Part shown: positions 643 through 19,519 of the stretch, piece by piece | Position numbering within the stretch: position 1 is the first letter of the stretch | Layout of the letters: each line of letters starts with the position of its first letter | IMG/VR virus record: IMGVR_UViG_3300047160_023228 | Strand: one strand, 5' to 3' | Length of the DNA stretch: 20,000 bases | Origin: an uncultured virus (IMG/VR IMGVR_UViG_3300047160_023228) | Taxonomy: Duplodnaviria; Heunggongvirae; Uroviricota; Caudoviricetes | Notes under the pieces: generated by a model | Database searches by the model: none | What the model saw: the letters and a program-made list of their open reading frames with translations, nothing else | What the model was told of the DNA's origin: nothing | Position numbers and translations under genes: made by a program

Positions 643-644
643 GG

Positions 645-965
645 TCAGAACTCCGTAGACGCGAAGTAGCGCGGGAACTTGGCGCCTTCGGTGATGAGTT
701 TGTTCAACTGTTCGCGGAAAGAGCGCGGCTTGTATCCGGGCTTTCCAAAGCCCTCATCGTCTTCATCGTGGAACTTGAGACGGCGCATTTCCTTCACACT
801 GAGTTCACGCGGGCAACCGTCCTTGATGTCGATCAGATCATCCTGCACAACCCGATCAAGGCTCATGCTCATGTTTTCCGCGTAGCCGATGGCGGCCTCA
901 AGCGGTGATGCCGCGGCCATCCATTCGCAATCGTTCATCTCGTAGACTTTAACTTCGCTGTCCAT
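645..965 (-). CDS. Phage hypothetical protein (106 aa)
   Basis: In operon; GGAAGG RBS overlapping the upstream stop; protein-like composition. Confidence 0.8.
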   Translation of the reverse strand: MDSEVKVYEMNDCEWMAAASPLEAAIGYAENMSMSLDRVVQDDLIDIKDGCPRELSVKEMRRLKFHDEDDEGFGKPGYKPRSFREQLNKLITEGAKFPRYFASTEF

Positions 966-973
966 CGCCTTCC

Positions 974-1465
974 TTATGCAAACAACGCCATCTGATCCCG
1001 CGCCGACACAACCCGGAACGCTTCAAACAGCGGCTCAATATCATCCTTCGGTTCGGACGTGCTCAAAGCTTCGAGCCGCGCCCAGGCTTCATCGGTGTCA
1101 AAATCGCCCGCTTTGTCGATGGCATCGAGCAACGCCATGCGCGAAGCTTCCACGTTGGCGCCCAGGTGCTCACAGCATTCGGGGAAGCTCACAAACGGCC
1201 ATTCCCCGCGCGGCTTCAATGTTTCCGAAGTGGCGATCCAATCGCGGGCGAGCAACGCTTCGTCGGTGGGCCGCGCTTGGGGATCGGCGGCGGGCTTCGG
1301 CAACGCCACGATCACGCCGCGGGAGATCGAAGCCAGGCCCAGGCAACAATTGCAATCGATCACCGCCACTTCGATCACGCGGAGATAGAACTGCATCGTA
1401 GGCGTGTAATGCCATTGCGGCCGGGCCGCTTGCCACCTTGAGACATCCAACTTCGATTCCGCCAT
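974..1465 (-). CDS. Phage hypothetical protein (163 aa) with C-terminal QMALF clamp-binding-like motif
   Basis: GAGGG RBS upstream; in operon; ARDWI...PFVSFPECCEHLG segment resembles an uncharacterised helical family; ends RDQMALFA. Confidence 0.8.
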   Translation of the reverse strand: MAESKLDVSRWQAARPQWHYTPTMQFYLRVIEVAVIDCNCCLGLASISRGVIVALPKPAADPQARPTDEALLARDWIATSETLKPRGEWPFVSFPECCEHLGANVEASRMALLDAIDKAGDFDTDEAWARLEALSTSEPKDDIEPLFEAFRVVSARDQMALFA

Positions 1466-1477
1466 CTTGCCCTCGTG

Positions 1478-1732
1478 CTACAGAACGCGGCGCACGATCA
1501 CGCCGGCAATGCCGTACTCATCCACCTTCTCGGTTGCGAACTTCATGCCCTTCAGGAAGGGCGAAACCCGCGTCAATGTGCGGCTGATCGAACCCATGCG
1601 CTTGCGCAAGTGATCCACGGATTCACCCTTGGCGGTGACGAAGAAACTATCGCCAACCTGCAGATCCCGCCACGGATACTTCCGCCCGCCGCATTTCCTG
1701 TCCGGTGGATCGATCCAAAACTTTTCCATCAC
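1478..1732 (-). CDS. Small phage protein, probable DNA-binding (KYPWRDLQVGDSFFV motif)
   Basis: KYPW/F-xx-L/M-x-VGDSF motif is common in small phage proteins; abuts upstream stop at 1733. Start may be ATG at 1729. Confidence 0.8.
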   Translation of the reverse strand: MMEKFWIDPPDRKCGGRKYPWRDLQVGDSFFVTAKGESVDHLRKRMGSISRTLTRVSPFLKGMKFATEKVDEYGIAGVIVRRVL

Positions 1733-2089
1733 TTACCTAACCTGTTCGTCGGGGTTTAGTTCGAATTTTCGGCAGAGTTCACGAGCGTACGTCGAACCCA
1801 ACGCAAACACAGCCGATACCGCAACCCATCGGGGGTGCTTTGTGCCTTTACGCTGCGCATGATCACGTGCGCCCCGAACAGCACGGCGCAATAAATCTTC
1901 GGCGGTGATCTCATGCAGGAAATGCCGGTATTCCAACTCCGCCGCGCAAAGAATCCGCTGGCGCAACTCGCCCGCCGCATGAGATCGGCACGGGCAACCG
2001 GGCTTGCATGTGTTCTCTTCGTGTGCGCCATAGATTCCACGCGCATCGAGAATCTCTTCGATGATGTCTTCCAACTGTTCAATCGCCAT
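1733..2089 (-). CDS. Phage hypothetical protein (118 aa)
   Basis: GAGG RBS; C-terminal PRWVAVSAVFALGSTYARELCRKFELNPDE segment is typical of phage hypotheticals; N-terminal CxxxCxCxxH cluster. Confidence 0.8.
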   Translation of the reverse strand: MAIEQLEDIIEEILDARGIYGAHEENTCKPGCPCRSHAAGELRQRILCAAELEYRHFLHEITAEDLLRRAVRGARDHAQRKGTKHPRWVAVSAVFALGSTYARELCRKFELNPDEQVR

Positions 2090-2092
2090 CGC

Positions 2093-2560
2093 TTACCTCG
2101 GCATCGTGCCCCGATAGCGCGGGGCTTTTTCGTTCACTTCCTCAAGCGAGTGATAGTCCACGTGGTTGTACCGGAAAACCCCATTCGCTTCGATCCGTTC
2201 GCGGGCAACCTGCCAGAACAGGGTGAGTTCGGCATGGCGTTCCCGTTCGGCCCATTGCTGTTCTCTCCGCCGGTTTGCCAGGTGCTCAAGCGGTTCGATC
2301 AGTTCGCCCAATTCCGGCCAGGCTTTTTCGCCTTCGCCCCGCCGGCGCCGCGCTACCCGGTGAACCACCGCCGTCACATCGGCGTCGGGGAATTCCGAAA
2401 CCGCCGTGGCGTACATCTCATACGCTTTGTCACTGACAGTCGCGCCCCGCGCTTCCGCCAGGAGTCTCATCAAGCCGAGCAAGGATAGAAGCCGCTGCGC
2501 GTCTTGCCGCTTCGTCATTTGCGTCGGAACGTTGCTGACCACCATGCCCAAAGTTGCCAT
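2093..2560 (-). CDS. Putative replication partner (helicase loader/inhibitor-like) downstream of initiator
   Basis: Position directly after the initiator gene; YATAVSEFPDADV...WPELGEL pattern resembles G39P/lambda-P-like helical domains. Start uncertain because it overlaps the initiator 3' end. Confidence 0.6.
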   Translation of the reverse strand: MATLGMVVSNVPTQMTKRQDAQRLLSLLGLMRLLAEARGATVSDKAYEMYATAVSEFPDADVTAVVHRVARRRRGEGEKAWPELGELIEPLEHLANRRREQQWAERERHAELTLFWQVARERIEANGVFRYNHVDYHSLEEVNEKAPRYRGTMPR

Positions 2561-3362
2561 TGCCGCCCCCGTTCGGTCTGGATTGGTTCTGTGCGCGCGT
2601 AAGCCAGTTCACGATGAACCGCCGCATTCCCGCCGGCGTCTTGCGGTTGCGCGGGTTGGCCTCAAGCCACACGCTGGCGCGAAGCAACTCCGTGAGCACG
2701 TTCACGCCGGGGAACGCATCGGCCCACTTCGCACAGTCTTCTGGCAACACCGGCCATTCCTCGCCGGTCACGGTGGGTATGTACATCGGGTTCCCGTTGG
2801 CGTCAAGAGCGGGACTGGGAGCGGGTGTTATCTGCGCGCCGCTTGCCGGCGGGCAAGAGTTGTTGTCTTTTCCCTCTACGTCTTCATCAACGTCTACGTC
2901 TACTTCGTCGCGTTTTGTATTGCTTAACGATTCGTTTTGATCTTCTAAACTATTCCATAACGAATCGTTTTGTTTCTGTTGTTGAGCCTGTTTCGCCGCT
3001 TTCGCAGCAGCCGCTTTCAGGGTCCGGTCCACGTGCGCCAGGTGCAACGCCTTCGAAGCTTCCCACGTCTCGAATTGCACCCGGTTGTAGACACGGCCGG
3101 AACCGTCCGATACGAAATGGGCCATTACTTCCTCGCGGATGGTAGGAAGGTTCTTCCTCTTCCGAGTCCACAAGCACAGTGAACGGCTGTACTTCGCCAG
3201 TTCGTTGTTGTCTTCCGGGAGCTTCCCATCGGGCTGTTGGAACTGCGCCATGATGAGGTTGTGAAACGCGCGGTAGCCCGCGTCTGTAAACGCCTGTACG
3301 GTGGCTGAGCCTTGCCAGGCGTCAATCTTATGCTTGTACCATTGCTGCCAATCTGAAGCCAT
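2430..3362 (-). CDS. Phage replication initiator, YdaU/DUF1376-like N-terminus (310 aa)
   Basis: Likely start ATG 3362 (TAATG overlap with upstream stop): MASDWQQWYKHKIDAWQGS...GYRAFHNLIMAQFQQPDGKLP...ELAK; low-complexity linker; C-terminal WADAFPGVNV..EL..A..WL.ANP..RKT..GM.RFI.NWL.RAQ typical of lambdoid initiators. Confidence 0.82.
   Translation of the reverse strand: MASDWQQWYKHKIDAWQGSATVQAFTDAGYRAFHNLIMAQFQQPDGKLPEDNNELAKYSRSLCLWTRKRKNLPTIREEVMAHFVSDGSGRVYNRVQFETWEASKALHLAHVDRTLKAAAAKAAKQAQQQKQNDSLWNSLEDQNESLSNTKRDEVDVDVDEDVEGKDNNSCPPASGAQITPAPSPALDANGNPMYIPTVTGEEWPVLPEDCAKWADAFPGVNVLTELLRASVWLEANPRNRKTPAGMRRFIVNWLTRAQNQSRPNGGGNGNFGHGGQQRSDANDEAARRAAASILARLDETPGGSAGRDCQ
2875..2985. repeat. 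Candidate phage replication origin (iteron-like repeats, AT-rich) inside initiator gene
   Basis: TAACGAWTCGTTTTG at 2925-2939 and 2958-2972; CGTTTTG at 2911, 2933, 2966; six TCNNCN hexamers 2875-2910; locally AT-rich. Confidence 0.6.
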
Positions 3363-4018
3363 TACGCCGCCTTCTCCAGCCACTTCGTATTCAGGTCGAT
3401 GCTTGCCTGTAGCGCCATCATTCGTTCCACGCGCGGATCGGCTTGCAGGTCCACCGCCGGCTTTTCCCGCATCAGCAGGTTGTACAGCCGTTCCACGCGC
3501 AGCGCGTTGTAGGCCGTGACGAACTTCGCGCCGTAGAACTGAATGCCATCCTTGCGGCGATAGCCCAGGCGTTCGGCAAGATCGGACTTCGTGACGCCAA
3601 GTTCCGCAACCATCCAATCGATTCGGCGGGTGGTTTCCTTCGCGTTCACCAGCGATCCATCGGAGCGGGCATCGGTGGTTACGCGCATGATCTTCTCTTC
3701 GGTGCTTTGCCGGATGCGCTTTTGCGTGCCGTTGGCGATCTTCATTAGCCGAACGTCGCTGATCCCGGTCACGTCCCACACCGCGCGCTTGCCTACGTGC
3801 GCCTGGCGGAGCATCAACAGGTGTTCCCGTGCGAATTCCGCGCTCACGTAGTAATCCATGTCGGAACGCTTGCGGCGGGCGCGCTGGTCGCGTTGGTGGG
3901 CCGCGTAAGCCGCGCGGCAACCATCACAGCGGCAACCCGTGCGATACCTTGCCGCGGTCCCGTGGGCCGCCTGTGTGTGCGCAGAACGGCCCTTGTAGTT
4001 TCCGGGTGCCCAGGGCAT
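3362..4018 (-). CDS. Phage DNA-binding protein: HGT..Y..GCRCxxC Zn motif plus two HTH-like regions (218 aa)
   Basis: AAHGTAARYRTGCRCDGCRAA; GKRAVWDVTGISDVRLMKIANG and GVTKSDLAERLGY HTH-like segments; operon coupling on both sides. Confidence 0.75.
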   Translation of the reverse strand: MPWAPGNYKGRSAHTQAAHGTAARYRTGCRCDGCRAAYAAHQRDQRARRKRSDMDYYVSAEFAREHLLMLRQAHVGKRAVWDVTGISDVRLMKIANGTQKRIRQSTEEKIMRVTTDARSDGSLVNAKETTRRIDWMVAELGVTKSDLAERLGYRRKDGIQFYGAKFVTAYNALRVERLYNLLMREKPAVDLQADPRVERMMALQASIDLNTKWLEKAA

Positions 4019-4021
4019 CGC

Positions 4022-5185
4022 TTACTTCTCCAGCCGCATCGGCATCACAACGTAGTCGAGATGATCCCCTTCGGCGGGATCGGCGGAGAACATCAGCGCG
4101 CTTTGGTTGGTATCCGGCAAGCAAATGCGGACATCGCCGGATAGGAGCTTGAACAGGTCCAACAGGTATTCGCCGTTGACGCCAACCGAGAACGGCTGTT
4201 TGGGTGTACCTTGGCAATCCACCGTCTCGCGGGCTTCGCCGCTCTGTGCGTCCGATCCTTCGAGGGTGATCTCTTTATCGAACGTGAGTTTGACGCTGCA
4301 GGAACGTTCATCGCTGAGCAATAGGCAACGTTCCAGGCTTGAGCGGAGTTCGCCGGCCTTCGCCGTGATCACCGTATTGTTCTTCGGCACAACCGCTTCC
4401 CAATTGGGAAATGGCCCGGCAAGTTTCTTGTGCGCCACGTGAACCGGAGTCTCACCCGGCAACGCGGCGATGATCTGTTGATCGTCGAAGGTGACATCCA
4501 CGCCGCCATCGGAGAGCATCGGCAACAGGGCCTTGACCATGCCGGCTGGGATCAGGAGGTTCTTGAGCTTGTCTTCACAGGAGATCGAATAGATCATCAT
4601 CGTGTGCCCGTTGGTGGCCACGAACTTCAGGTGCGATCCATCTCCCACGGCCAGAATGCCGTTGAGCGTGTAGCGGCTGGCTTCCTTGCTCACGGCGATC
4701 TGTGCGAAGCGAAGCGCGCGGGCAACACCCTCCTGGTCAAGCGTGATGGCGCCGCCATTGGCTTCGAACGAAATCTGCGGCCATGAACCAACACCCATGA
4801 TCGGAAGCACGGCGCGGGCACGGGCGCATTGCAGCGTTGCCCGGCGATCCGTGAGGCTGAGCTTCACTTCATCGCCCGTGAGAAGCTTCGTCCAATCGAG
4901 CAGTTTTTCCGCGGGGATCACCACAGGCTTATCGATGGTGGTGGATTCGGGAACCGCGGCGCGGATGGCCAGGTCAAGGTTGGTGGCTTCGAGGATCAGG
5001 CCCGCCGGCGTCTGTTCCACCTTGACGCAGGTCAGAATCGGGATGGTGGTTTTGCGCTCGATGGCCGCCGAAACAGTCTTGAGCGCGTGTTTCAAATTGG
5101 AGAGAGATACGGTGGCCTTCGAGGGCGCGGATTCCGGCTTGTCAACCGTTGCGGCCTCGGGCTTGTCTGTTACCGCTGTTGCCAT
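4022..5185 (-). CDS. dnaN: DNA polymerase III beta sliding clamp, prophage-encoded copy
   Basis: AIERKTTIPILTCV, LEATNLDLAI, SKEASRYTLNG, FVATNGH, GPFPNWEAVVP, GVNGEYLLD, YVVMPMR; 387 aa; no dnaA/recF/gyrB context. Confidence 0.95.
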   Translation of the reverse strand: MATAVTDKPEAATVDKPESAPSKATVSLSNLKHALKTVSAAIERKTTIPILTCVKVEQTPAGLILEATNLDLAIRAAVPESTTIDKPVVIPAEKLLDWTKLLTGDEVKLSLTDRRATLQCARARAVLPIMGVGSWPQISFEANGGAITLDQEGVARALRFAQIAVSKEASRYTLNGILAVGDGSHLKFVATNGHTMMIYSISCEDKLKNLLIPAGMVKALLPMLSDGGVDVTFDDQQIIAALPGETPVHVAHKKLAGPFPNWEAVVPKNNTVITAKAGELRSSLERCLLLSDERSCSVKLTFDKEITLEGSDAQSGEARETVDCQGTPKQPFSVGVNGEYLLDLFKLLSGDVRICLPDTNQSALMFSADPAEGDHLDYVVMPMRLEK

Positions 5186-5189
5186 GCTT

Positions 5190-5517
5190 GCCTTCTTTCG
5201 AGGGTTGAGGGTTTACGTTGCGGGGGAGGGCCGGTGGTTTAGCGAATCGGCGCCGGGATATCGGCCCCATTGATCTTTCGCTTGAGCGAAATCGCTTCGC
5301 CGTCCTGCTGTTCCAGGCGGTCTTCATCGATCCAACGGCCTTCGGTGAAATCGCCTTCCTTCTTGACGGGCGGCTGTACGAGGTACTGAGAGCAACCCGT
5401 GATGTAGGTAGTGAAGCCGGTCACGGTTCCGGTGAAACCCGTGATCTTGTCTTTTACCTTCAAGCCGAACTGAATGTTCTGTGCTGCCATGTCGCCTTCT
5501 TTCGAGGGTTGAGGGTT
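5190..5517. repeat. Perfect 24-bp direct repeat (5190-5213 and 5494-5517) containing the RBS of two consecutive genes
   Basis: GCCTTCTTTCGAGGGTTGAGGGTT at both positions (minus strand AACCCTCAACCCTCGAAAGAAGGC). Confidence 0.9.
5239..5490 (-). CDS. Small phage hypothetical protein, SH3-like beta-barrel (83 aa)
   Basis: G.KVKDKITGFTG.VTG...YITGC.QYLVQP...WIDEDRL pattern common in phages; GAAAGAAGG RBS. Confidence 0.85.
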   Translation of the reverse strand: MAAQNIQFGLKVKDKITGFTGTVTGFTTYITGCSQYLVQPPVKKEGDFTEGRWIDEDRLEQQDGEAISLKRKINGADIPAPIR

Positions 5518-5526
5518 GTGGTTGAA

Positions 5527-5946
5527 TCAAGCCGCATCGGGAACGATCAACAGTTCCATCTCGATCAGCTTTCGTGAGAGCCGGTCCAATGCGGCCGGAA
5601 ACTTGTAGGCCATCGTGCGCGCGGCCATCCCCAGGAGCTGCGCGGCTTCGGCCTGGGTATACTCCTGAATCACCACGCGGTTGAGGATGTCTCTATCCAG
5701 CGAGGGGAGCTTTTCGATGGCGCGTTCCATATCGCGCACAAAGATCACCGCGTCTTCGAACGAATGGATCGGGCGGCTTGAAACCCATCCGCCATCGTTG
5801 GGGTTCTGCAAGGTGGATGCGGTTCGGCTGGTTTGCATCGCGGCGTAGAAGTAACGCCGCAACAGGCCATGCGCCTGGGAGCGGTAGAACTGTACCGCCA
5901 TCTCATCCACCATCTCGGGGATCGTGAGCTTCTTTTGCTTTGCCAC
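5527..5946 (-). CDS. Sigma-70 region 4-like HTH protein (139 aa), putative phage transcription regulator
   Basis: Likely start GTG 5946 (TAGTG overlap); SFEDAVIFVRDMERAIEKLPSLDRDILNRVVIQEYTQAEAAQLLGMAARTM...ALDRL matches a sigma4-type HTH. Confidence 0.85.
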   Translation of the reverse strand: MAKQKKLTIPEMVDEMAVQFYRSQAHGLLRRYFYAAMQTSRTASTLQNPNDGGWVSSRPIHSFEDAVIFVRDMERAIEKLPSLDRDILNRVVIQEYTQAEAAQLLGMAARTMAYKFPAALDRLSRKLIEMELLIVPDAA

Positions 5947-6149
5947 TACGCACCTGCCTCGGCCAACTTCCAATTGGCGAACTTGCCTTTGCGGGTGGGG
6001 CGCCCGCGCATCTTGCGGGTTTCTGGCGTCGGGAAGTTCTTGAGCAGCGTTTCGCACGCGGCGCAATAAGCGGATTGCTGAGTGACAGGCCGCGTGAAGA
6101 TCGAACCGCACGCCTCGCAGATTTTGAATTCCACCGAGATATCGGTCAC
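5946..6149 (-). CDS. Small Zn-ribbon protein (67 aa)
   Basis: KICEACG...YCAAC (two CxxC); GTGA overlap with the HD gene stop. Confidence 0.8.
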   Translation of the reverse strand: MTDISVEFKICEACGSIFTRPVTQQSAYCAACETLLKNFPTPETRKMRGRPTRKGKFANWKLAEAGA

Positions 6150-6787
6150 AGCGCGGCCACCTTTCGTTCCGCGCGGCGCGCATTGTTGAGCGCGTGGAAG
6201 CGGCGAAGAAATTCCACTTCGGCCCGATCCGGACCCATGGGGTAGATCGTCTTCGGCAACACGCCGTCATGCCAGGTGGCGCCGTGCATCAGGTCCCGCA
6301 TTTCGGTGTTGAGCAGGATGCGATCAGCGGCCTTCACCGCCGGCGGTTCCGGGCCGCACAGATCGAAGCGGTGGGCGATGGCTTCCATCAGGTTGTGTTC
6401 GAAGCCGCGGTAGATATCGCCGATCCCCGGCGTGCGCTTGATCGGGCTTGGCATGTCGCACAGGTACGCCTCGGACGCATCGTGCATCAGGCCCCACAGC
6501 GCGATTTCGCGGGCATAGGGAACGCGCATCGATGCGGGCCAATCCCTTACCGCGGTCATGGCCAGGCGAACCGCAAGGGTGCTCACGTACAGGCTGTGTT
6601 CGGCCACCGAATAGAAGCAATAGGTGTGCCCGGTGAAGCGTGCGACCAGGGAGAGCGCGTGCGCGATATCGTCAATGTCGATATCTTCCGGTTGCGGATT
6701 CAGCGGCCAGAACTTCCGGCCGGTATAAGTGCGGATGTAATTCGAATCGGTGCGTTCGATCTTGGTGGCCTCGGAGATCATCAACAT
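6146..6787 (-). CDS. HD-domain phosphohydrolase (YfbR/5'-deoxynucleotidase-like, phage type)
   Basis: IDIDDIAHALS...RFTGH...YSVAEHS...LMHDASEAYLCDMPSPIK...VKAAD...E.RDL. Alternative starts at 6814 and 6781. Confidence 0.9.
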   Translation of the reverse strand: MLMISEATKIERTDSNYIRTYTGRKFWPLNPQPEDIDIDDIAHALSLVARFTGHTYCFYSVAEHSLYVSTLAVRLAMTAVRDWPASMRVPYAREIALWGLMHDASEAYLCDMPSPIKRTPGIGDIYRGFEHNLMEAIAHRFDLCGPEPPAVKAADRILLNTEMRDLMHGATWHDGVLPKTIYPMGPDRAEVEFLRRFHALNNARRAERKVAAL

Positions 6788-7185
6788 GCCAGGGCTGCCT
6801 TTCTTTCTTGCCATGCCAGGCGCACGCTCTCGGCGATCTTTGCCCGGTGGTGTTCGGGAAGATGGTTGCTATTGCGGGCGCGGCGTAGCTTCGGCCTTCC
6901 GCCCGCGGAACCCAACATGAGGTTGTAGCCGTTCTCAACCGTGTTGAATTCGCGGATAAACTTGCGTTCCATCTGATTCAGCCGGCGTTGGCAATCGGCT
7001 TCGCCCAGGCAGACCACTTCGAAGACATCAAAGCCAAATTGGCGCATGTCCCGGTAAAGCGGCCAATCGTAGCGGCCGATGCGCGCTTCGGTTCGGTGCT
7101 GGCGCCAACGGGCCTCGACGGTGCGCGTGGTTTTGCCCACGTAGCACTTACCGTTGACTCGATTTCGAAGCAGATACACGTTCAT
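6781..7185 (-). CDS. GIY-YIG endonuclease (134 aa) with NUMOD3-like tail
   Basis: Start ATG 7185: MNVYLLRNRVNGKCYVGKT...RWRQH...E..FI..FNTVENGYN...HLPEHHRAKIAES. Confidence 0.88.
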   Translation of the reverse strand: MNVYLLRNRVNGKCYVGKTTRTVEARWRQHRTEARIGRYDWPLYRDMRQFGFDVFEVVCLGEADCQRRLNQMERKFIREFNTVENGYNLMLGSAGGRPKLRRARNSNHLPEHHRAKIAESVRLAWQERKAALAC

Positions 7186-7450
7186 TGCGCTTTCCGTTGC
7201 CTTCGCGTTGCCGCATGAGTTCGGACACCAGGCCCGCGGTTTCGAGTTCAAGCCGGTGCATAATGTCCCGGATGGGCATCTGTGGATCGGCCGCAATCGC
7301 GGAATCGAACACGAAGCGGCCATCATCGTCAGGTGCTGCGCCGGCGCGAACAGCCACCACGAACAGGGCGCCCGAACCTTTCCTGATCCACTCGCACGCG
7401 CCCTCAAGCGAATGCCGGCTGGTGAGGTCCCATTTGCCGTTGTTGCTCAC
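7148..7450 (-). CDS. Phage hypothetical protein (100 aa)
   Basis: GTGA overlap with upstream stop, GAGG RBS, in operon. Confidence 0.7.
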   Translation of the reverse strand: MSNNGKWDLTSRHSLEGACEWIRKGSGALFVVAVRAGAAPDDDGRFVFDSAIAADPQMPIRDIMHRLELETAGLVSELMRQREGNGKRNERVSASKSSQR

Positions 7451-7785
7451 GCCGCGGCCTCTTCTTTCCGGAGTTGCTTGATATCGAAGCCGTATTCGTG
7501 AAGCTTGCGGTAGAGGGTGGTTTTGCCGATGCCCAGGAGCTTGGCGGCCAGGAGCGGGCCTTTGCGTTCGATGGCGTGCAGGATGGCTTTCTTTTCGAGA
7601 GCATCCAGGGGCACGATGCCGTCTTCGTAGTTGGTGGCATCGCCTTCGGCCTGAATGCGGGCCGGGACAAGTTCTGTCTTCAGCCGCGCGAGTTCCTGTT
7701 GCCGCTGCAGGATCAGGGCGCGCACCCGGATCAGTTCGCTTTCGATCTGGTCAATGCGCTGGCACGCGCAACCGTGGGAACTCAT
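7447..7785 (-). CDS. Coiled-coil plus Fis-type HTH (HTH_8) protein (112 aa)
   Basis: Start ATG 7785 (ATGA overlap); PLDALEKKAILHAIE...AAKLLGIGKTTLYRKLHEYG is the Fis/NtrC C-terminal HTH. Confidence 0.88.
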   Translation of the reverse strand: MSSHGCACQRIDQIESELIRVRALILQRQQELARLKTELVPARIQAEGDATNYEDGIVPLDALEKKAILHAIERKGPLLAAKLLGIGKTTLYRKLHEYGFDIKQLRKEEAAA

Positions 7786-8111
7786 GCCGCGGCCTCTTCC
7801 TTGATGGCGCGATAGGACCACAGGCCGCTGGCGGGAGCGGTGCGCTGGCGTTCGATTTTCCATCCGCCGCGGCGCATGTCCCGAAGGCGGGCGGAGATCG
7901 ACGTTTCCGATGCGCGAAGGCTGTACTGCTTCACCAGGTCCCTGGCGATCTTGGGAAGGGTGCGCCACTGTCCATCGCTCATCAGGTGGGCAACGCACGC
8001 GCGCTGTCCGGAGAGGCGGGCGCCGTCCTGTTCGGGCGAGAACGATTCGCCGAAGATGGCGGGCTGTTGGGCGGCCGGCGGGGCGATGTCAAAAAGGGCG
8101 AGGCTGTTCAT
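7782..8111 (-). CDS. Phage winged-helix-like DNA-binding protein (109 aa)
   Basis: LMSDGQWRTL..I...SETSISARLRDMR.GG..IERQR; ATGA overlaps at both ends. Confidence 0.8.
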   Translation of the reverse strand: MNSLALFDIAPPAAQQPAIFGESFSPEQDGARLSGQRACVAHLMSDGQWRTLPKIARDLVKQYSLRASETSISARLRDMRRGGWKIERQRTAPASGLWSYRAIKEEAAA

Positions 8112-8485
8112 CCGCGCACCGCCTTGGTGAACGTTTCCAGACTCATGCCCTCGTGAAACGGATGAGCGTTTAATGCACTATTCAGTTGGGAGGCTTTGTG
8201 GAGAAGCTTGCGGGCATTGCCGCGGCGCACGGTATCGGTGGCCTTGCGCCACTTGCCGATGAAGATACCGGCGTCGGCGTGCTCGAAATCAGCCTGGAAG
8301 AGATAAAGCCGGGTTGCTCCGCAATCGAGGCAGGTCTGGCGGTTGTTGAACGGAAGGCTGAGATGGGAATGCCGGCACGGAAAAAAGAAATCGGCCAGGC
8401 GCGTCAGCACCGTTTGGAGGGCAGATCTGTACCCCGTTCGGGTTACTTCTGCCGGTGCTCTAAGAGTGAGGGCGGGGCTTTGCAC
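8108..8485 (-). CDS. First gene of phage operon; hypothetical with CxH...CxxC motif (125 aa)
   Basis: AAGGAG RBS 8 nt upstream of GTG; FFPCRHSHLSLPF...TCLDCG. Confidence 0.75.
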   Translation of the reverse strand: MQSPALTLRAPAEVTRTGYRSALQTVLTRLADFFFPCRHSHLSLPFNNRQTCLDCGATRLYLFQADFEHADAGIFIGKWRKATDTVRRGNARKLLHKASQLNSALNAHPFHEGMSLETFTKAVRG

Positions 8486-8525
8486 TTGACAATCTCCTTG
8501 AAAAATCAGAAGATTGCCAAACGCG

Positions 8526-8602
8526 TGGTAGGCGGAGCCGGTGTGAATCCGGCAACCCCCGGCTTAGAAGGCCGGTGCTCTATCCGATTGAGCTACTCGC
8601 CC
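8526..8602 (-). tRNA. tRNA-Arg(UCU), atypical 3' half; probable prophage attachment junction
   Basis: Minus strand: GGGCGAG TA GCTC AATCGGATA GAGC A CCGGC CTTCTAA GCCGG GGGTT GCCGG ATTCACA CCGGC TCCGCCT A CCA; 77 nt cloverleaf with encoded CCA. Confidence 0.88.
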
Positions 8603-8612
8603 GCGTTCTTCC

Positions 8613-8618
8613 ATTGTA
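8613..8618 (-). promoter_or_regulatory. Putative -10 element (TACAAT) of the tRNA promoter
   Basis: TACAAT on minus strand, 10 nt upstream of tRNA position 1; no clear -35. Confidence 0.45.
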
Positions 8619-8638: not shown

Positions 8639-9181
8639 CTATCGGCTGCGCGCAATCACTTCAACAACCTCAGGCAGTGCCGCCGAAAGCATCCCGAGCG
8701 CATCCGACCGGCTGGAACCGCAGGCGGTCACGTATAGGGTGATGCCCAGGCCCGGTCGATCAGGTGTGATGAAAGCGCGGCGGACGACGAAATCGGCGCG
8801 GCACTTGCGCAGCTGAATTGAGCGAAGAGCCGTGCACATTTGCCTGCAGCAGCGCTCCGCCAATGGGGGAGACGCCCAGTGCCGGCCGCTTCTCGGCAAC
8901 ATGTCGATGTAAGCGGCCATGGCACAAGCTACGCTTCCCTCGTCGGCATCGAGTTCGCACGGATCAAATTCTTCCACGTTCCACACGTCGCATTTTGAAG
9001 TCCAGACGTCTGACAGAGGCCCGTTTAGGCGGTTCAGCGCAGGCGCCAAACCGGGAAGCTGCGATCCTTCAGAGATCTCCGCAACCCGCGACGCATCGCT
9101 GCGCAGATCGACGAAACCCTCCCAGCACCCATCGATCACGGGCGATTCGCCGCCAATTTCCATTTCCCAGTCGGCTTCCAT
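8639..9181 (-). CDS. Conserved hypothetical host protein (180 aa)
   Basis: Start ATG 9181 (TGATG overlap with hydrolase stop): MEADWEMEIGGESPVID...WTSKCDVW...GITLYVTACG. Confidence 0.8.
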   Translation of the reverse strand: MEADWEMEIGGESPVIDGCWEGFVDLRSDASRVAEISEGSQLPGLAPALNRLNGPLSDVWTSKCDVWNVEEFDPCELDADEGSVACAMAAYIDMLPRSGRHWASPPLAERCCRQMCTALRSIQLRKCRADFVVRRAFITPDRPGLGITLYVTACGSSRSDALGMLSAALPEVVEVIARSR

Positions 9182-10227
9182 CAGGGTTGGCCGGCAAACT
9201 GGAGAAGGTAGCGAATCACCGTAGATTCCGCCCAGTGAATATCGTCTCCAGGTTCTCCGCAGAGATAGGCGCAATGGCCGCCGTTGGGCGTCTCGATCAG
9301 CCGGATGTTCGGATTACGCAGGATCTCCTCGCGAGTCTTGGGAGTCACGCGAATGAAGGGGTCGTCGAGAGCGCGCAGGATCAGTGTCGGGAGCGCGATG
9401 CGGTCGATGACGCGCGCACTGGCCACGCGGTAGTAGTAGTCGTCGGCATCACGAAAGCCGCAATAGCGGGCAACAATTTTGTCGTCGAACTCGCGCAGCG
9501 AACGGACCGGCCCCACCCGCGGGTTCTTGTAAATATGCGGGAATAGCTCGGCTTTGCGGCGGAAACGGCGCATGAGGCGGCGCAGGAAGTGCCACTCATA
9601 CATGCGATTTGCCAGCTCATGCAGCGCATCGGACCCGGCCGCGAGATCGATCACCGGGCAGACGGTTGCCACGGCGCACAGCGGACGGCGCGTACCCCAT
9701 TCGCCCGCCAGTTTCAACACCAGGTTGCCGCCCATTGAGTAGCCCACAAGCGCAACGCGCTCCAGCCCGAAGCGCCGCGTGTAGCGCTCCACTACGGCGC
9801 CTACATCGCCGGAAAAACCCGAGTGATACAGTGTGGGTGTCAACGTGTCCGAGCCATTGCAGTTGCGCATATTCATGCGCACCACGTTGCACCCTGCCGC
9901 CCACGCGCGCGAGGTCAAGCCCCGGATGTAGCGCGAATCAGAAGAGCCCTCGAGTCCGTGGACCAGCACCAGCGTCAGGCGCCCGCTCATTTCAGGGCCG
10001 CGATGCCAGTGCGCGTGGCACAACACACGGCTTCCGTCGGCGGGGTCCACCTCCACTTCATCTGTCTCAAACGGAAGGCGGAATGCCCCGCGTGGCAGGA
10101 AATTTCCCACGATCGTCTGCACGTGCCCGTTTCTCAGCCCGCGACGCGGTGCGAAGGCGGTGAGCCAGTCCGCCGCGGACGGCAGAGTTTCTTTTGCAGT
10201 CAATTGGGCCGGGGAATCAGCGCTCAC
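9181..10227 (-). CDS. YheT-family alpha/beta hydrolase (348 aa)
   Basis: NGHVQTI, VHGLEGSS, GYSMGG nucleophile elbow, DDPF acid, GGHC histidine. Confidence 0.93.
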   Translation of the reverse strand: MSADSPAQLTAKETLPSAADWLTAFAPRRGLRNGHVQTIVGNFLPRGAFRLPFETDEVEVDPADGSRVLCHAHWHRGPEMSGRLTLVLVHGLEGSSDSRYIRGLTSRAWAAGCNVVRMNMRNCNGSDTLTPTLYHSGFSGDVGAVVERYTRRFGLERVALVGYSMGGNLVLKLAGEWGTRRPLCAVATVCPVIDLAAGSDALHELANRMYEWHFLRRLMRRFRRKAELFPHIYKNPRVGPVRSLREFDDKIVARYCGFRDADDYYYRVASARVIDRIALPTLILRALDDPFIRVTPKTREEILRNPNIRLIETPNGGHCAYLCGEPGDDIHWAESTVIRYLLQFAGQP

Positions 10228-10761: not shown

Positions 10762-10796
10762 GTGCACGGTGAGCAAACACCGGCATGGGAGAAAAA

Positions 10797-11048
10797 ATGT
10801 TCAGACAAAGCATTACGCGTTTACTTGGCCTGGTTCTGCTGATTACGACCCTGCTGGCGGGGAGCGAGTTTGGATTCGCCGCCAGGAAACCGATACCCGG
10901 CAGGAAAACTACAGATGCCGCCGGCCGCACGCATGTGCGTCCCGCCGGCCGCATCTCGGACGCGCAGCGCCGCGCCGCAGCCCGGCAGCGCAGAACTGTT
11001 CGCGATCACTTCATGCGATCCATCAAGAGCAACGGGGGTCGCCAATGA
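10797..11048 (+). CDS. Small basic secreted protein (83 aa) translationally coupled to the multicopper oxidase
   Basis: GGAG RBS; signal-peptide-like MFRQSITRLLGLVLLITTLLAGSEFGFAA; ATGA overlap with the oxidase start. Confidence 0.7.
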   Translation: MFRQSITRLLGLVLLITTLLAGSEFGFAARKPIPGRKTTDAAGRTHVRPAGRISDAQRRAAARQRRTVRDHFMRSIKSNGGRQ

Positions 11049-14000
11049 AGAGGGCGCTCGTTCTGATGTTGCTCGTCCTGTCCGCCGCGCTTGGATCGAG
11101 CCAGGCCCCGGACCCCGCCAAAAACCCCCACTATTTCGGCCCCTATCCGAACTGGGCCAACAGCCCTCTGACCACCGTTGACGCGAGCATTCAATTGACT
11201 GATACATGCGGCAACGGCGCAGGAACGGGCGCCTCCGCGGTGGCATTGGTCGATTCCAAGGGCTCGATTACCGGCGTTACCGTTACCAGTCAAGGCGCGG
11301 GCTACACGTGCCCCCCCGATGTTTCCATTACCAGCACCTACGGCAACGGCGCGGCCGCCCATGCAACGTTTGCGGCAACCTCGGGCTATATCAGTTCCAT
11401 TAGCCTGGTGAATGGCGGCACCAACTACTTTGCGCCCGTAGTGGTCATCAACGGAAATGGCACAGGGGCCACGGCGGACGCCACGGTCGATCCATACAGC
11501 GGCGCGATCACCAGCATCTCGCTGACCAACCCCGGCTCGGGATACACGTCGGCCACCATCAGCATTTCCGATGGCGGGGGCACCGGGACGGGCGCGATGG
11601 CCACGGCCACGGTGAGCACGTCCACGATCGGCGTTATTGTGGATGCGGCGGGCATCGGCTACAGAACGCCCGGCGGCTTGAGGAAGTTCGTCGATACGCT
11701 GCCCGGGCTCGGCCCGTCGGCAGCCAACAATCTCGGACAGTATGTCTCTGTAGCGCACCCGGACACGACCACTTACCCGGGATCCGACTACTACGAAATC
11801 GCCGTGGTCGAGTACTCAAGGAAACTGCACTCCGACCTCTCCCCCACCAAGCTCCGCGGCTACGTGCAGCTCAATAACGGCACCGACTCCAACGGTCAGA
11901 ACACTATTGCTCCGGATGGCCCGCAGTTCCTGGGCGCGACAATCGTAGCGACCAAGGACCGGCCGGTGCGCATTCTTTTCCGCAACAATCTGCCAACCGG
12001 TGAGGCCGGCAACCTGTTCCTCCCGGTGGATACGACCATGATGGGCGCCGGCATGGGTCCCGACATGGGCGGAATGAAGGAGACGGACAGCAGCAGCGTG
12101 TTTGACGGCGTCCGCAACCCGATGTGCGGCAATGCCGGCGCCAAGCCTATGGGATGCTACACCGAGAATCGCGCCACCCTGCACCTGCACGGCGGCCTGA
12201 CCCCGTGGATCAGCGACGGCACGCCGCACCAGTGGACCGTGCCCGCAACCGAGTCGACCATGTATGAGAAGGGCGTGAGCGTCAGCAACGTCCCCGACAT
12301 GTGGTACGACGCGAATGGAGCCACACTTTCCGAGTGTGCCGGCCAGAATACCTGCGCAGTTGCCAATGCTACCAACAACCCGGGCAAAGGCGCTCTCACC
12401 TTCTACTACACCAACCAGCAGAGCGCGCGCCTGCTGTTCTATCACGACCACTCCTGGGGCATAACCCGCCTGAACGTGTATGCGGGCGAAGCCGCCGGCT
12501 ATCTCATCACCGACAACACAGAAAAGACGCTCACCGCACCCGGCGGGGCGCTGGATGCTTCCGATCCCGCGCTTGGCCTGGGAATCCCGCTCGTGATTCA
12601 GGACCGCACGTTTGTGCCCAGTGCCGCTCAGCTTGCCACACAGGACCCCACATGGGATGCGGCGCGCTGGGGTACCGAAGGAGATTTCTGGTATCACCAC
12701 GTCTACATGCCCGCGCAGAATCCTGCCGATCCTACGGGCGCCAGCCCCTTCGGGCGCTGGATGTACGGGCCGTGGTTCTGGCCCCCGGCGAACCAGGCCA
12801 CCACTCCCTACCAGCCCATTCCCAACCCGTACTACGATCCGGCCTGCGATCCGGCGAATGCGCCGAATGGCTTCTGCGAGCCGCCTATGATTCCCGGCAC
12901 GCCGAACATCTCGGTGGGCATGGAGCAGTTCAACGACACCCCGCTGGTCAACGGCACGGCCTATCCAACAATGACCGTGGAGCCGAAAGCCTACCGCTTC
13001 CGCCTGCTCAATGCGGCCAACGACCGCTTCTTCAACTTGCAGTGGTACGTGGCCGACTCCAGCGGCACCGAAGTGGCGCTGAAGGCCTCTGATGTGGCGG
13101 CGGCACAGGTAGACCCAAACGTATTCCCCACGCCCGACACCAACATCAGCCCCGCCGGCCCGAGCTGGCTCCAGATCGGCAGCGAAGGCGGATTCCTGCC
13201 TACGCCGGCAACCATTCCGAACCAGCCGATCACGTGGATCACCGATCCCACGCGGTTCGATTACGGCAATGTGGACCAGCACTCGATGTTGATCGCTCCC
13301 GCGGAGCGCTCGGACGTGATCGTGGACTTCTCGAAGTTCGCGGGCAAGACGCTGATCCTTTACAACGACGCGCCTGCCGCGTTCCCCGCGCGCCAAGCCA
13401 GCTACGACTACTACACCGGCGATCCCGACAATACCGACATCGGCGGCGCGCCCACGACTGTGCCCGGTTTCGGTCCGAACACGCGGACCATCATGCAGGT
13501 GAAGGTGGCCGGCACGCTTACCAAGGCCAGCGCCTTCAGCCTGTCCAAACTGGTCACCGCCTTCGCGCACAATGCCAATGGCACGGGCGTGTTCGAGTCC
13601 GGCCAAAACCCCGTCATTGTCGGCCAGGCCGGCTATAACCGCGCCTATGGCAGCACCTTCACTACCTCCGGCGATTGCTCAAACCCCAAGACCACCACCA
13701 AGTGCGACGGCTTCGCGCGCATCAACCTGCAGGGCGGGGACCTGTTCACGTTCGACACCCTTAGCGGCAAGAAGCTGTCCATTCCGCTGCAGCCGAAAGC
13801 GCTGCACGATGAAATGAACTCGACCACATTTGACGAATACGGCCGCATGACCGCCAACCTCGGCGTGGAAGCGGTTCCGGCGAATGCGGGCGCACAAAAC
13901 GTGGTTCTGTATCCCTACGTCAACCCGGCGACCGAGATGATCGACGGCACCAACCTGCCTTCAGCCTCGGGCATCAAGATCGCCCCGATCGCCACCGCCA

Positions 14001-16525
14001 ACGATGGCACCCAGATCTGGAAGATCACCCACAATGGCGTGGATACGCACCCCATCCACTTCCACCTCTATGACGTGCAAGTTATCAACCGCGTCACCTG
14101 GGACAACATCATCATCCCGCCCGATACCAACGAACTGGGCTGGAAGGATACCGTTCGCGTCAGCCCGCTGGAAGATACGCTGGTTGCGCTGCGGCCTGTC
14201 ACTCCCAGCCTACCCTTCCAGATACCGAACAGCATCCGCCCGCTGAACCCCGGCATGCCGGTCGGATCGATGATGGGCTTCAGCAGCGTCGGCCCCGACG
14301 GCAACGCGACCACATCCAACATCGTCAACGACATCGTGAACTTCGGGTGGGAGTACGTGTGGCACTGCCACATTCTCAGCCACGAAGAAATGGACATGAT
14401 GCGCCCCGTGTCGTTCGCAGTCCCGCCCGCGGCTCCTGCGAACCTGGTCGCCAACTCCAACGGCACCGCAGTGGCGTTGAATTGGACCAATGCCGCGGCG
14501 AATGCCACGGGCTACACCTTGCAACGCGCTACCGACAGCGCCTTTACGGCTAACCTCCAGACATGGCGTGTAGGCATGGTGAACGCTTACACCGATTCCA
14601 ACGCCAATCCCGGCTCAACCTACTACTACCGCGTGTTTGCGACCAACACCGTCGGCAGCACCATGGACTCCGGGTTTACCCAATCGCCGGGCGGCAATTC
14701 CATGCCCACGATGACGGTCAACTCCGGGTACTCGAACACCGCGCCTGTCCTGGCCGGCAACCCGGTTATCGGAGTGGCGCCTGCCGCGCTCAACTTCGGA
14801 AATGTGCTGCTGAACACCAGCGCCGGGCCGCAGTCCGTCACACTCTCCAACACGGGCGGCGTGGCTCTGACCATCAATAGCATCGGGCTGGGCGGCGCAA
14901 ATGCCGGCCAGTTTGCGATGCCGGCGTCGGCTACTCCGTGCGGCTCAACCTTGAACGCGGGCGGCAATTGCGTGATCAACGTGACATTCTCGCCGACAAC
15001 TCTCGGCGCGCAGTCCGCGGCGATCACCATCGCGACCAACGATCCGTCCAGCCCGGTATTGACCGTGCCGGTAACCGGTTCCGGCATCGCGAGCACGACC
15101 TTAGCCCTCAGCGCCCCGGCCATCACCTACGGACAGAACGGCGTGGTCACGCTAGCCGTGTCCTCCACGCAGGTGAACCCGGTCGCCGGGAACATAACCC
15201 TAACTGTTGACGGTGGAGCCCCGCTCAGCCAGGTCCTCGCAAACGGCTCTGCAACCTTCACGCTAACCGCGCCAGGCGCGGGAACCCACACCCTCACCGC
15301 AAACTACGCGGCCCAGGGCGGCGTATCGGCGGCCTCGGCAACCGGCACACTCGTGGTCAACTCGGCAGCGCTCACCATTACGGCGAGCAGCGCGTCACTG
15401 GCCTATGGCGCACCTGTTCCAGCCATCACTCCGGCGTATAGCGGTTTCGTGCTCGGACAAGGGCCCACAAACCTGACGGGAACAGTTAGCTGCTCGACCA
15501 CGGTGACGAGCACCAGCCCGGTGAGCGGCAATCCGTATTCCAGCACCTGTTCGGGAGCGGCAAGTACGAATTACGCCATCAAGTACGTCGCGGGCACAGT
15601 CACTGTAAACCAGGCCTCGACAGCCACAGCCATTACCTCTAACTTGCCGAATCCATCGATCCCGGGGCAGATCGTCACCATAACGTTCAAGGTGACTCCG
15701 CAAGTCAGCGGCAGTCCGACCGGAAGCGTGAAGGTCCTGGCCAGCACCGGCGAGAGCTGCTCGGCAATTCTTCCGGCCGCGAGCTGCACACTCAGCTTCG
15801 CAGGCTCGGGCTCGCGGACGCTCACGGCCACCTATGGCGGCGACAGCAACTTCACCGGATCGGTGTCGCCTGCAGCCAACCAGCAGGTGGTCAGCGGGGT
15901 TGTTCTCAGCACGACTTCGCTGCTGTTCGGCAATCAGCTTGTGAACTCAACCTCGGCCAGCCAGGCAGTCACAATCGCCAACGTTGGCACAACGACTCTC
16001 ACCATCAATGGGTTTAGTTTCGGCGGATTGAACCCGGCGGACTTCACCCAGACAACCAACTGCGGCAGAACGTTGCGAGCTGGACAGAACTGCCGCGTGA
16101 ACGTTTCGTTCCGGCCTGGCGCCGCGGGTGTGCGCATGGCAACCCTTATCATCAGCGACTCCGACATAAGCAGTCCGCAAACGGTGTCGTTGACAGGTAC
16201 GGGCGTGCAACCTACCGCGACGCTAACCCCGGCTTCCTACAACTACGGCACCGTGCTGCGCGGGCGGACAGCCTCCTATGGCTTCACGCTGTCCAACACC
16301 AGCGTAGCTTCGATGACCATCAACCGGATCAGCATCACTGGAACAAACGCCAACCAGTTCTCGCAGCGCAGCAACTGCGGCAACACTCTTGGCGCGGGCC
16401 TGAGCTGCACGATCACGGTGACGTTCGCGCCGACGCAACGCGCTACTGCTAACGCTACCCTTAGCGTGAGCAATAACGCAGTGGGAAGTCCGCACACTGC
16501 CTCGCTCACCGGTTTGGGGCAGTAA
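11045..16525 (+). CDS. Large secreted multicopper oxidase (MofA/OmpB-like) with Fn3 and Ig-like tail (~1826 aa)
   Basis: Signal peptide MKRALVLMLLVLSAALGSSQA; all four copper motifs HLHGG, FYHDH, HPIHFH, WHCHILSHEEMDMM; Fn3 (PAAPANL...YYYRVFATN); three LxFG/YG..CG..L..G..C Ig-like repeats plus Big-like domains. Confidence 0.93.
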   Translation: MKRALVLMLLVLSAALGSSQAPDPAKNPHYFGPYPNWANSPLTTVDASIQLTDTCGNGAGTGASAVALVDSKGSITGVTVTSQGAGYTCPPDVSITSTYGNGAAAHATFAATSGYISSISLVNGGTNYFAPVVVINGNGTGATADATVDPYSGAITSISLTNPGSGYTSATISISDGGGTGTGAMATATVSTSTIGVIVDAAGIGYRTPGGLRKFVDTLPGLGPSAANNLGQYVSVAHPDTTTYPGSDYYEIAVVEYSRKLHSDLSPTKLRGYVQLNNGTDSNGQNTIAPDGPQFLGATIVATKDRPVRILFRNNLPTGEAGNLFLPVDTTMMGAGMGPDMGGMKETDSSSVFDGVRNPMCGNAGAKPMGCYTENRATLHLHGGLTPWISDGTPHQWTVPATESTMYEKGVSVSNVPDMWYDANGATLSECAGQNTCAVANATNNPGKGALTFYYTNQQSARLLFYHDHSWGITRLNVYAGEAAGYLITDNTEKTLTAPGGALDASDPALGLGIPLVIQDRTFVPSAAQLATQDPTWDAARWGTEGDFWYHHVYMPAQNPADPTGASPFGRWMYGPWFWPPANQATTPYQPIPNPYYDPACDPANAPNGFCEPPMIPGTPNISVGMEQFNDTPLVNGTAYPTMTVEPKAYRFRLLNAANDRFFNLQWYVADSSGTEVALKASDVAAAQVDPNVFPTPDTNISPAGPSWLQIGSEGGFLPTPATIPNQPITWITDPTRFDYGNVDQHSMLIAPAERSDVIVDFSKFAGKTLILYNDAPAAFPARQASYDYYTGDPDNTDIGGAPTTVPGFGPNTRTIMQVKVAGTLTKASAFSLSKLVTAFAHNANGTGVFESGQNPVIVGQAGYNRAYGSTFTTSGDCSNPKTTTKCDGFARINLQGGDLFTFDTLSGKKLSIPLQPKALHDEMNSTTFDEYGRMTANLGVEAVPANAGAQNVVLYPYVNPATEMIDGTNLPSASGIKIAPIATANDGTQIWKITHNGVDTHPIHFHLYDVQVINRVTWDNIIIPPDTNELGWKDTVRVSPLEDTLVALRPVTPSLPFQIPNSIRPLNPGMPVGSMMGFSSVGPDGNATTSNIVNDIVNFGWEYVWHCHILSHEEMDMMRPVSFAVPPAAPANLVANSNGTAVALNWTNAAANATGYTLQRATDSAFTANLQTWRVGMVNAYTDSNANPGSTYYYRVFATNTVGSTMDSGFTQSPGGNSMPTMTVNSGYSNTAPVLAGNPVIGVAPAALNFGNVLLNTSAGPQSVTLSNTGGVALTINSIGLGGANAGQFAMPASATPCGSTLNAGGNCVINVTFSPTTLGAQSAAITIATNDPSSPVLTVPVTGSGIASTTLALSAPAITYGQNGVVTLAVSSTQVNPVAGNITLTVDGGAPLSQVLANGSATFTLTAPGAGTHTLTANYAAQGGVSAASATGTLVVNSAALTITASSASLAYGAPVPAITPAYSGFVLGQGPTNLTGTVSCSTTVTSTSPVSGNPYSSTCSGAASTNYAIKYVAGTVTVNQASTATAITSNLPNPSIPGQIVTITFKVTPQVSGSPTGSVKVLASTGESCSAILPAASCTLSFAGSGSRTLTATYGGDSNFTGSVSPAANQQVVSGVVLSTTSLLFGNQLVNSTSASQAVTIANVGTTTLTINGFSFGGLNPADFTQTTNCGRTLRAGQNCRVNVSFRPGAAGVRMATLIISDSDISSPQTVSLTGTGVQPTATLTPASYNYGTVLRGRTASYGFTLSNTSVASMTINRISITGTNANQFSQRSNCGNTLGAGLSCTITVTFAPTQRATANATLSVSNNAVGSPHTASLTGLGQ

Positions 16526-19254: not shown

Positions 19255-19519
19255 TTGCATTCCCTCCCGCAAGCGCGACGATTTCACCGGCTCCATTCGC
19301 AGTTCGCGAATAGAAGAGAAATGTTGGGGGACACCTCAGGATACATGAGATTTCAATTCTTCACAGGTTCGTTGGAACCATGACGAGCCGGATTCCGAAA
19401 ACGGAACTCGCGGGAAGCAAAGATTCTCTCCTCATCCACCCCGTGCGGGATCTCAATGCAAAACTAGGAACGGTATTAAGCGTCTTTGTCCACCCGAGTT
19501 TGCCCCTGATCTAGGGGAC

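Follow-up and report, generated by a model that had tools for sequence, protein, structure and literature searches.

A prophage of about 42 kb has inserted into the gene for tRNA-Arg(UCU) in a soil bacterium of the Acidobacteriaceae. The tRNA gene at its left junction (attL) is a chimera with a damaged 3′ half, and the prophage carries a second, canonical tRNA-Arg(UCU) gene of its own. We consider it probable that the phage lineage gained its own cognate tRNA first and that the 3′ half in its attachment site (attP) decayed afterwards. Overall, the feature is real and is largely explained by a known kind of system; what is new is the host phylum and the intermediate stages.

The window that we analyzed is a stretch of 20,000 nucleotides (IMG/VR record IMGVR_UViG_3300047160_023228). 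Its positions 1-7450 are 100% identical to another record, G001 (41,148 bases, rated complete). To the left of the window the prophage runs on as G001, with terminase and virion genes (a lambda-type terminase, capsid, and tail genes).

The tRNA gene at the left junction

Both ARAGORN and Rfam find one tRNA in the window, a tRNA-Arg(TCT) at 8526-8602 (minus strand). Its host-type 5′ part (8571-8602, minus strand) contains the acceptor 5′ strand, the D-arm, and the 5′ strand of the anticodon stem, all of the same type as in relatives of the host; the last 12 bases of this part are the left half-site, which is repeated around attP. The anticodon loop (8564-8570, minus strand; anticodon at 8566-8568) probably contains the crossover, judging from sister phages. 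The remainder (8526-8563, minus strand) is the phage-supplied 3′ half; the hairpin of the family's attP and the first early gene come behind it, an order also found in the attP of the sister phages L098 and L289. A first-pass annotation, made from the sequence alone, had already read the gene as a chimera whose 3′ half comes from a phage and which marks a prophage boundary; this agrees with synteny in 72 relatives, with the attP and attR sites of sister phages, and with the attP-type hairpin and early gene behind the tRNA.

The T-arm (8537-8553, minus strand) has an intact 5-bp stem with five Watson-Crick pairs, the length of the tRNA is exact, CCA is encoded, and the D and anticodon arms are both intact. 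The T-loop (8542-8548, minus strand) reads ATTCACA, so that A54, U56, C57, and A60 are present and A58 is kept. (In tRNA, T54-A58 and G19-C56 build the elbow.) On these points the first-pass annotation was borne out by ARAGORN, Rfam, and the alignment. It had also noted two G-U pairs and an A-C mismatch in the acceptor stem and had named CTCGCCC as the perfect partner strand. The pairs are as described: the acceptor 3′ strand TCCGCCT (8530-8536, minus strand) forms G1.U72, G7.U66, and the mismatch A6.C67. However, G1.U72 is native to this gene (U72 is found in 59 of 72 relatives), the expected strand ends in T and not in C, and the real damage is a swap of bases 66 and 67 (at 8536 and 8535), which gives G7.U66 and A6.C67. 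Compared with the nearest canonical 3′ half, the attL 3′ half differs at 8 of 24 positions; the damage amounts to 8-9 changes over these bases. The gene scores 50.4 bits against RF00005, versus 67-73 bits for intact junctions of the same phage family. Its minimum-energy fold is not a cloverleaf, whereas all three of the intact junctions that we folded gave one.

The normal state of the gene was taken from relatives. The two host genes upstream of the tRNA (8639-10227, minus strand), a 211-aa frame and an alpha/beta hydrolase, served as the anchor for synteny, and the hydrolase led to 80 syntenic loci (from Terracidiphilus, Acidobacteriaceae, Acidobacteria/Acidobacteriota, and one uncultured bacterium). 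We used 72 of these, some of which are themselves junctions of other elements, and dropped eight (four had no match, three were cut by a contig end, and one had another tRNA type). All 72 complete host-type tRNAs have TTCRA and C66-U67, none has an acceptor mismatch, and T54, C56, R57, and the pair 6-67 are kept throughout; the aberrant 3′ half is thus absent from relatives, in line with the first-pass annotation. The T-stem falls into eight types among the 72, nearly all of them paired, and the type at attL is not among them. From this survey, G1.U72 and a divergent but paired T-stem are ordinary at this gene, and the T-loop and the 66/67 swap are not.

Broader searches gave a similar picture. 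A pattern search of 401 genomes of the genus, which required the usual variable loop and so would miss damage like that of the phage L288 (see below), found no base other than T at position 54 after this arm. A BLAST search of 401 genomes with the canonical tRNA gave no damaged cases among the best 150 matches listed. The exact T-arm motif of attL had 12 matches in viral contigs, none of them in a tRNA or in this phage family. Among 201 genomes searched for this tRNA arm, 160 had a match, with one copy in 149 and two copies in 11; ten of the latter provided 18 loci, in which all 17 complete tRNAs are canonical. Two of the two-copy loci (G260 and G406) were considered as members of this phage family and rejected on inspection. 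In four host genes, AGA makes up 8 of 2908 codons, and to our knowledge AGA is read only by tRNA-Arg(UCU). Because the tRNA is mostly single-copy in relatives and host genes use AGA, a phage that returned this 3′ half would need cover.

Some of the related loci have features of their own. L062 (one of the 72) contains a displaced 18-base 3′ fragment, of the T-loop/junction type, within 10 kb. L023 has a decayed, displaced 3′ fragment of the tRNA about 450-510 bases past the tRNA, and the 5′ strand of its T-stem also reads GCCGG, which hints that nearby repeats can template such a change in the T-stem. At L072 (2343-2419; genome G284), the host-type tRNA-Arg(TCT) is missing behind the hydrolase, and a phage-type tRNA with a phage-like -10 box lies on the opposite strand; it is the sole match in that draft genome and is possibly a domesticated phage tRNA. 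In L341 (G176) and L342 (G094), a small element is flanked on both sides by a full-length tRNA-Arg(TCT), the two copies being 5.8 and 14.7 kb apart, respectively. L341 has a related integrase (53%), and the two loci represent a further att layout at the same gene. Farther out in the window, a large host protein (10769-16525) with a multicopper-oxidase domain, fibronectin III, and several Ig-like domains adjoins a two-component pair (17115-19296).

Attachment site and early operon

In the attP sites of L098 and L289, the order is integrase, small ORF, phage arm, a stretch identical to the host gene, canonical 3′ half, hairpin, and early operon; the identity to the host gene begins in the D or anticodon stem. 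Another sister, G010, shows both attL and attR. Their 3′ halves differ from T-stem base 50 onward, and attR contains the displaced 3′ fragment. At attL in the window, host-type sequence extends through the anticodon arm and the variable loop as far as base 49 and is followed by a 3′ half of full length. In the sister phages, the crossover falls in the anticodon loop and the element supplies a 3′ fragment. Given their attP sites and the junctions of G010, the same would hold for the phage in the window. That attB overlaps the host tRNA gene is seen from the position of the operon, which starts behind the syntenic host tRNA, and from the presence of both attL and attR in G010.

The tyrosine integrase that would act at this site lies at the far end of the prophage (G001 114-1286; PF00589 and PF14659). 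Its homologues adjoin attP or attR in L098, G010, G413, and L289, and a search of viral contigs with it matched only one distant phage besides G001. The record G001 ends 113 bases short of this integrase; in sister phages the attR sites are about 500-600 bases before it.

The early/replication operon occupies 1-8485 (minus strand) and encodes, among others, an HD nucleotidase, a GIY-YIG protein, a sigma-70 region 4 protein, a beta clamp, and a DUF1376 protein. At its far end (G001 30578-34340, reaching window 1-642), a PAPS-reductase-domain protein, a C5 cytosine methylase, and a DUF5131 protein lie in a row. The first early gene (8108-8485, minus strand; 125 aa) has no family match. Directly behind CCA is a hairpin (8482-8524, minus strand; -22.4 kcal/mol, z -6.2) that is predicted to bury the ribosome-binding site (8494-8498) and the GTG start codon (8483-8485). 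Two of its 11 pairs show two-sided changes across seven family members, and a hairpin folds in all 15 junctions examined, including behind intact ones. A post-CCA hairpin, mostly with the repeat, is also found behind the tRNA in L070 (11656-11730), L245 (the attR of G413), L246 (G260), and L343. In the first three of these, where no family genes matched, the hairpins are probably scars of earlier insertions.

A repeat search showed that the left half-site recurs as a direct copy within the first early gene (8451-8462, minus strand). This 12-base copy is about 63 bases past CCA, a distance that most family members share, and another copy is present upstream of the core in attP and attR. In members that target tRNA-Val or tRNA-Arg(CCG), the sequence of the copy follows the target tRNA. 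This fits an accessory recombinase-binding site, and we regard the copy in the first early gene as a candidate that probably has this role. Several members have AGA as codon 9 of their first early gene, and we considered whether it might be a sensor for AGA decoding. We rejected this idea: codon 9 is AAA in G002, CAA in L103, and GGA in L283. Since the overlapping repeat follows the target tRNA and codon 9 varies, we take the AGA as a by-product of the DNA site.

Integration parts the early operon from the DNA on the integrase side and places it behind the host tRNA promoter. The likely -10 box of this promoter, TACAAT (8613-8618, minus strand), was read from the sequence, has the same spacing in relatives, and would point into the phage early operon; a promoter scan of the window gave no full sigma-70 match there. 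No CI-like repressor was noticed near the early operon. The hairpin and the placement behind a host promoter are possibly an integration-coupled switch for the operon.

The phage tRNA and the state of the 3′ half across the family

The first-pass annotation had suggested looking for a second tRNA-Arg(UCU) gene, and there is one inside the prophage (G001 30446-30523, plus strand). It is canonical (67.8 bits) and is encoded on the strand opposite the lytic genes, at a distance of about 11.7 kb from the damaged gene. In sequence type it resembles the native tRNA-Arg(TCT) of other Acidobacteriaceae more than that of this host. When we aligned eight related copies (seven from phages and one genomic), all 168 stem cells paired and 4 of the 21 pairs showed two-sided changes, which is a sign of conservation of the fold and not a probability. 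Where a family member has its own tRNA, it is always just upstream of a second tyrosine integrase (Arm-DNA-bind_3; G001 29144-30367, which is L112 9144-10367), just before the small terminase gene. This second integrase is in the middle of the genome, far from the att site, and has homologues in L283-L310, L315, and L317.

The phage tRNA does not look like an aid to lytic growth. AGA accounts for 7 of 8538 codons in 19 larger phage frames and 8 of 1656 codons in 13 short early frames, against the 8 of 2908 in the four host genes, so AGA is not enriched and a role in codon supply was not supported. The family also targets tRNA-Val(TAC) and, more distantly, tRNA-Arg(CCG) (L283, L285, L291, L317, and L311). 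None of the four members that target tRNA-Val(TAC) has an Arg tRNA of its own, even though two of them (L283 and L317) are closest to the window phage in the neighboring second integrase (72%). Because the phage is not rich in AGA and the tRNA tracks the Arg target, the own tRNA more plausibly provides cover at the att site than a boost to lytic growth.

A search with a profile of one family protein gave 30 viral loci and 3 of 401 genomes. For the tally we used the nine records in which the Arg 3′ half and the slot beside the second integrase are both visible (we excluded records that lack the junction; L032, L068, and L098 have an intact 3′ half but stop short of the slot). Five records have an intact 3′ half and no own tRNA (L303, L308, L309, L310, and L289). 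Two have an intact 3′ half and an own tRNA (L299 and L315), although these may be one event, as their tRNAs are identical and their integrases belong to the same clade. Two have a damaged 3′ half and an own tRNA (the window phage and L288), and none has a damaged 3′ half without an own tRNA. This is consistent with the own tRNA as cover for a damaged 3′ half but is not proof of it: with p = 0.17 by Fisher's test (0.077 when the Val-targeting members are included), the association does not reach significance.

L288 is the second case of damage. Its junction scores 43.3 bits and its own tRNA 69.5 bits. It has lost T54, U55, the pair 6-67, and CCA, and none of its changes is shared with the window phage. 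In all three protein trees (midpoint-rooted, read without support values for clades, and for mosaic phages) L288 is not sister to the window phage. The identifiers of the two records begin with the same prefix, and the two phages, even if independent themselves, may thus come from linked samples. In both copies the T-loop motif and the pair 6-67 are affected and a 5-bp T-stem can still form (the register in L288 was set by eye). In a census of viral records with a host-type 5′ half, we found 12, of which six are intact, one is damaged (L288), and five carry the 5′ half within phage DNA, where the 3′ half is decayed or absent. In L108 (8399-8452), L109 (1677-1730), L323, and L327, a promoter-like site and a tRNA 5′ half, whose 3′ half is decayed or missing, lie inverted relative to the integrase. 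This sister lineage probably rebuilds the tRNA at the other junction.

The course of events that we favor would be as follows. A temperate siphovirus-like phage would integrate in the anticodon loop of tRNA-Arg(UCU) by means of its far-end tyrosine integrase and would supply the tRNA's 3′ half as it does so. Its lineage would first have gained a complete tRNA-Arg(UCU), with its own promoter, beside the second integrase gene. Selection on the 3′ half in attP would then have been lifted, and the 8-9 changes would have collected. The chimeric tRNA is probably poorly matured or inactive, and AGA codons in the lysogen would be read mainly by the phage tRNA. The decay probably arose in a working phage lineage, since the integrases, terminase, portal-position, capsid, and tail genes align to those of sister phages without stops. 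Besides the small numbers, the lack of significance, and the intact attP sites of L098 and L289, several observations count against this account or its fixed order. First, in simulations, the T-stem and CCA survive 5-9 random changes in just 0.3-7% of cases. Second, 11 of 160 relatives have two copies of the tRNA, so a second host copy is conceivable, as is a rebuilt tRNA at attR. Third, at L304 (G002; about 6140-6190) the slot of the own tRNA holds a terminator-like hairpin and a few tRNA-like bases but no tRNA, which is a possible loss; the own tRNA may at times be lost as well as gained, and the direction of change given here is provisional.

We weighed other explanations against this one. 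The chimeric tRNA might still work, perhaps weakly, with the phage tRNA as a supplement, for example against host anticodon nucleases. In its favor, the D and anticodon arms are complete, the length, CCA, the T-stem, and A58 are preserved, both ARAGORN and Rfam call it a tRNA, and two family records have an own tRNA beside an intact junction. Nevertheless, we find this unlikely: T54, C56, R57, and the pair 6-67 are invariant in all 72 relatives, roughly 17-23 bits have been lost, the minimum-energy fold has no cloverleaf (unlike all three intact junctions), and L288 does not even encode CCA.

A phage with cover might also remodel the gene actively, erasing the T-loop and the T/acceptor junction and keeping the T-stem, along with the hairpin, in a leader that controls the early operon. 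Other islands could then not land in the attachment arm, and the leader would no longer be matured as a tRNA. Both damaged copies are hit at the T-loop motif and the pair 6-67 and can still form a 5-bp T-stem, the early operon with its conserved hairpin over the ribosome-binding site comes directly behind the tRNA, L062 has its displaced fragment of T-loop/junction type, and the T-stem and CCA are more intact than random decay usually leaves them. On the other hand, the pattern was recognized post hoc and in only two cases, L288 has not kept CCA, the hairpin occurs behind intact junctions too (so that it does not need the damage), and the T-stem could persist through DNA-level repair between repeats. 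We therefore judge remodeling to be improbable; if it were true, the lysogen would be bound to a phage tRNA located 11.7 kb into the prophage, and the prophage would thereby be guarded against piecemeal deletion. The annotation's related suggestion of a deliberately structure-preserving 3′ half has weak support. It gains something from the paired T-stem in both damaged copies and from the low simulated frequencies, but eight T-stem types in 72 relatives amount to normal divergence, and L288 lacks CCA. Decay under cover of the phage tRNA is the simpler reading.

It is very unlikely that a promoter and 5′ half carried by the phage restore the tRNA at attR, which would make both the attL chimera and the distant tRNA unneeded. 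The sister lineage of L108/L109, L323, and L327 (integrase identity of 54-57%) does have a promoter-like site and a 5′ half, but the integrase of the window phage is 63-71% identical to those of L098, G010, G413, and L289, whose attP and attR sites have no tRNA 5′ half. We give as little credence to damage that arose after integration, in a long-resident prophage, as opposed to being a property of the free phage. The damage has been seen in a single strain (three assemblies are identical at the tRNA), and no attP with a damaged 3′ half was seen in the family (those of L098 and L289 are intact). However, 8-9 changes in 24 bases need a long time, yet the core genes have no stops; G001 is rated complete; and the phage tRNA would still be needed as cover.

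Finally, an error of assembly or sequencing, which the first-pass annotation had raised as a check, can be dismissed almost entirely: although all records with this tRNA may come from one strain and one sampling campaign, the same tRNA letters are present in two other metagenome contigs, L123 (1949 of 1949 bases identical to the window) and L124 (1116 of 1118), and in one Logan contig that spans 7978-8582 with no differing letters. The Logan contig may be source data, and one of the four sequencing runs covers the attL 3′ half (three do not); among 24 runs listed, none was of RNA. Loose ends at the core with canonical 3′ halves also occur in the runs and are not attributable to this host.

Comparison with known systems

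We compared the favored reading, an own tRNA followed by decay of the 3′ half, with the accessible parts of the papers cited here. In canonical islands with a crossover in the anticodon loop (A-site islands in Islander; PMC4383910), as here, attP contains a 3′ fragment and a displaced fragment is left at attR, which we saw in the sister G010. In contrast to such islands, the restored gene in the window breaks the tRNA consensus (A54, U56, C57, and A6.C67). What the accessible text of that study terms damage is a small deletion near the discriminator and not decay of the T-loop. Elements that restore the 5′ end of a tRNA are also described, as 159 of 3919 Islander islands (PMC4383910) and as the pelagiphage HTVC120P. 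The sister lineage of L108/L109, L323, and L327 appears to be of this kind at the same tRNA, but the closer relatives of the window phage differ.

Disrupted host tRNAs that are accompanied by a phage tRNA of identical anticodon have been described outside Actinobacteria for Sinorhizobium meliloti prophages at tRNA-Leu(UAG) (PMC11476347), likewise in another report on Sinorhizobium (PMC12429752), and for the pelagiphages HTVC119P and HTVC200P at tRNA-Leu(TAA) (bioRxiv 10.1101/410191). In the accessible parts of these reports, the host gene is simply not rebuilt, with no decaying 3′ half and no series of stages. More generally, in the literature that we searched, mostly by listing and abstract, we found no case in Acidobacteriota and none that combines a decaying 3′ half with a cognate phage tRNA.

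The closest match is tRNA-dependent lysogeny, for which dependence has been shown experimentally in actinobacteriophages (Fionnbharth of cluster K4, Cluster L, Cain, and Gaia; PMC10865867). According to the accessible text of that paper, the shared features are a tyrosine integrase with attB in a tRNA gene, a cognate tRNA that the phage encodes at another place in its genome and on the opposite strand to its lytic genes, and close relatives that rebuild the tRNA and lack one of their own. Those phages have a core of 8-17 bp and supply no 3′ half. The window phage instead supplies a full-length, tRNA-shaped but damaged 3′ half, and relatives with both an own tRNA and an intact 3′ half exist here. 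The host phylum (Acidobacteriota) and the isotype (Arg(UCU)) differ as well, and the case is known from sequence alone. Since it does not have a short core without a 3′ half, we class this phage as a variant of tRNA-dependent lysogeny, which it resembles in its workings, and not as a member. It looks like a halfway stage toward phages whose host would depend on a viral tRNA.

These stages bear on a question that the accessible text of PMC10865867 poses. That paper calls the evolutionary relation of tRNA-dependent lysogeny to ordinary tRNA-restoring integration unclear, asks whether the phage copy was selected for by loss of the tRNA or whether it was the copy that allowed a smaller core, and says that the spread of such lysogeny outside Actinobacteria needs study. 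In this family, every stage that a phage-tRNA-first order predicts can be seen at a single tRNA (intact without an own tRNA, intact with one, and damaged with one, the last of these twice and with different mutations), although the numbers are small. The case also cautions that a dying gene may be behind a tRNA call at a prophage boundary, and it adds one more reason for small temperate phages to carry a single tRNA. The series makes the order of events testable.
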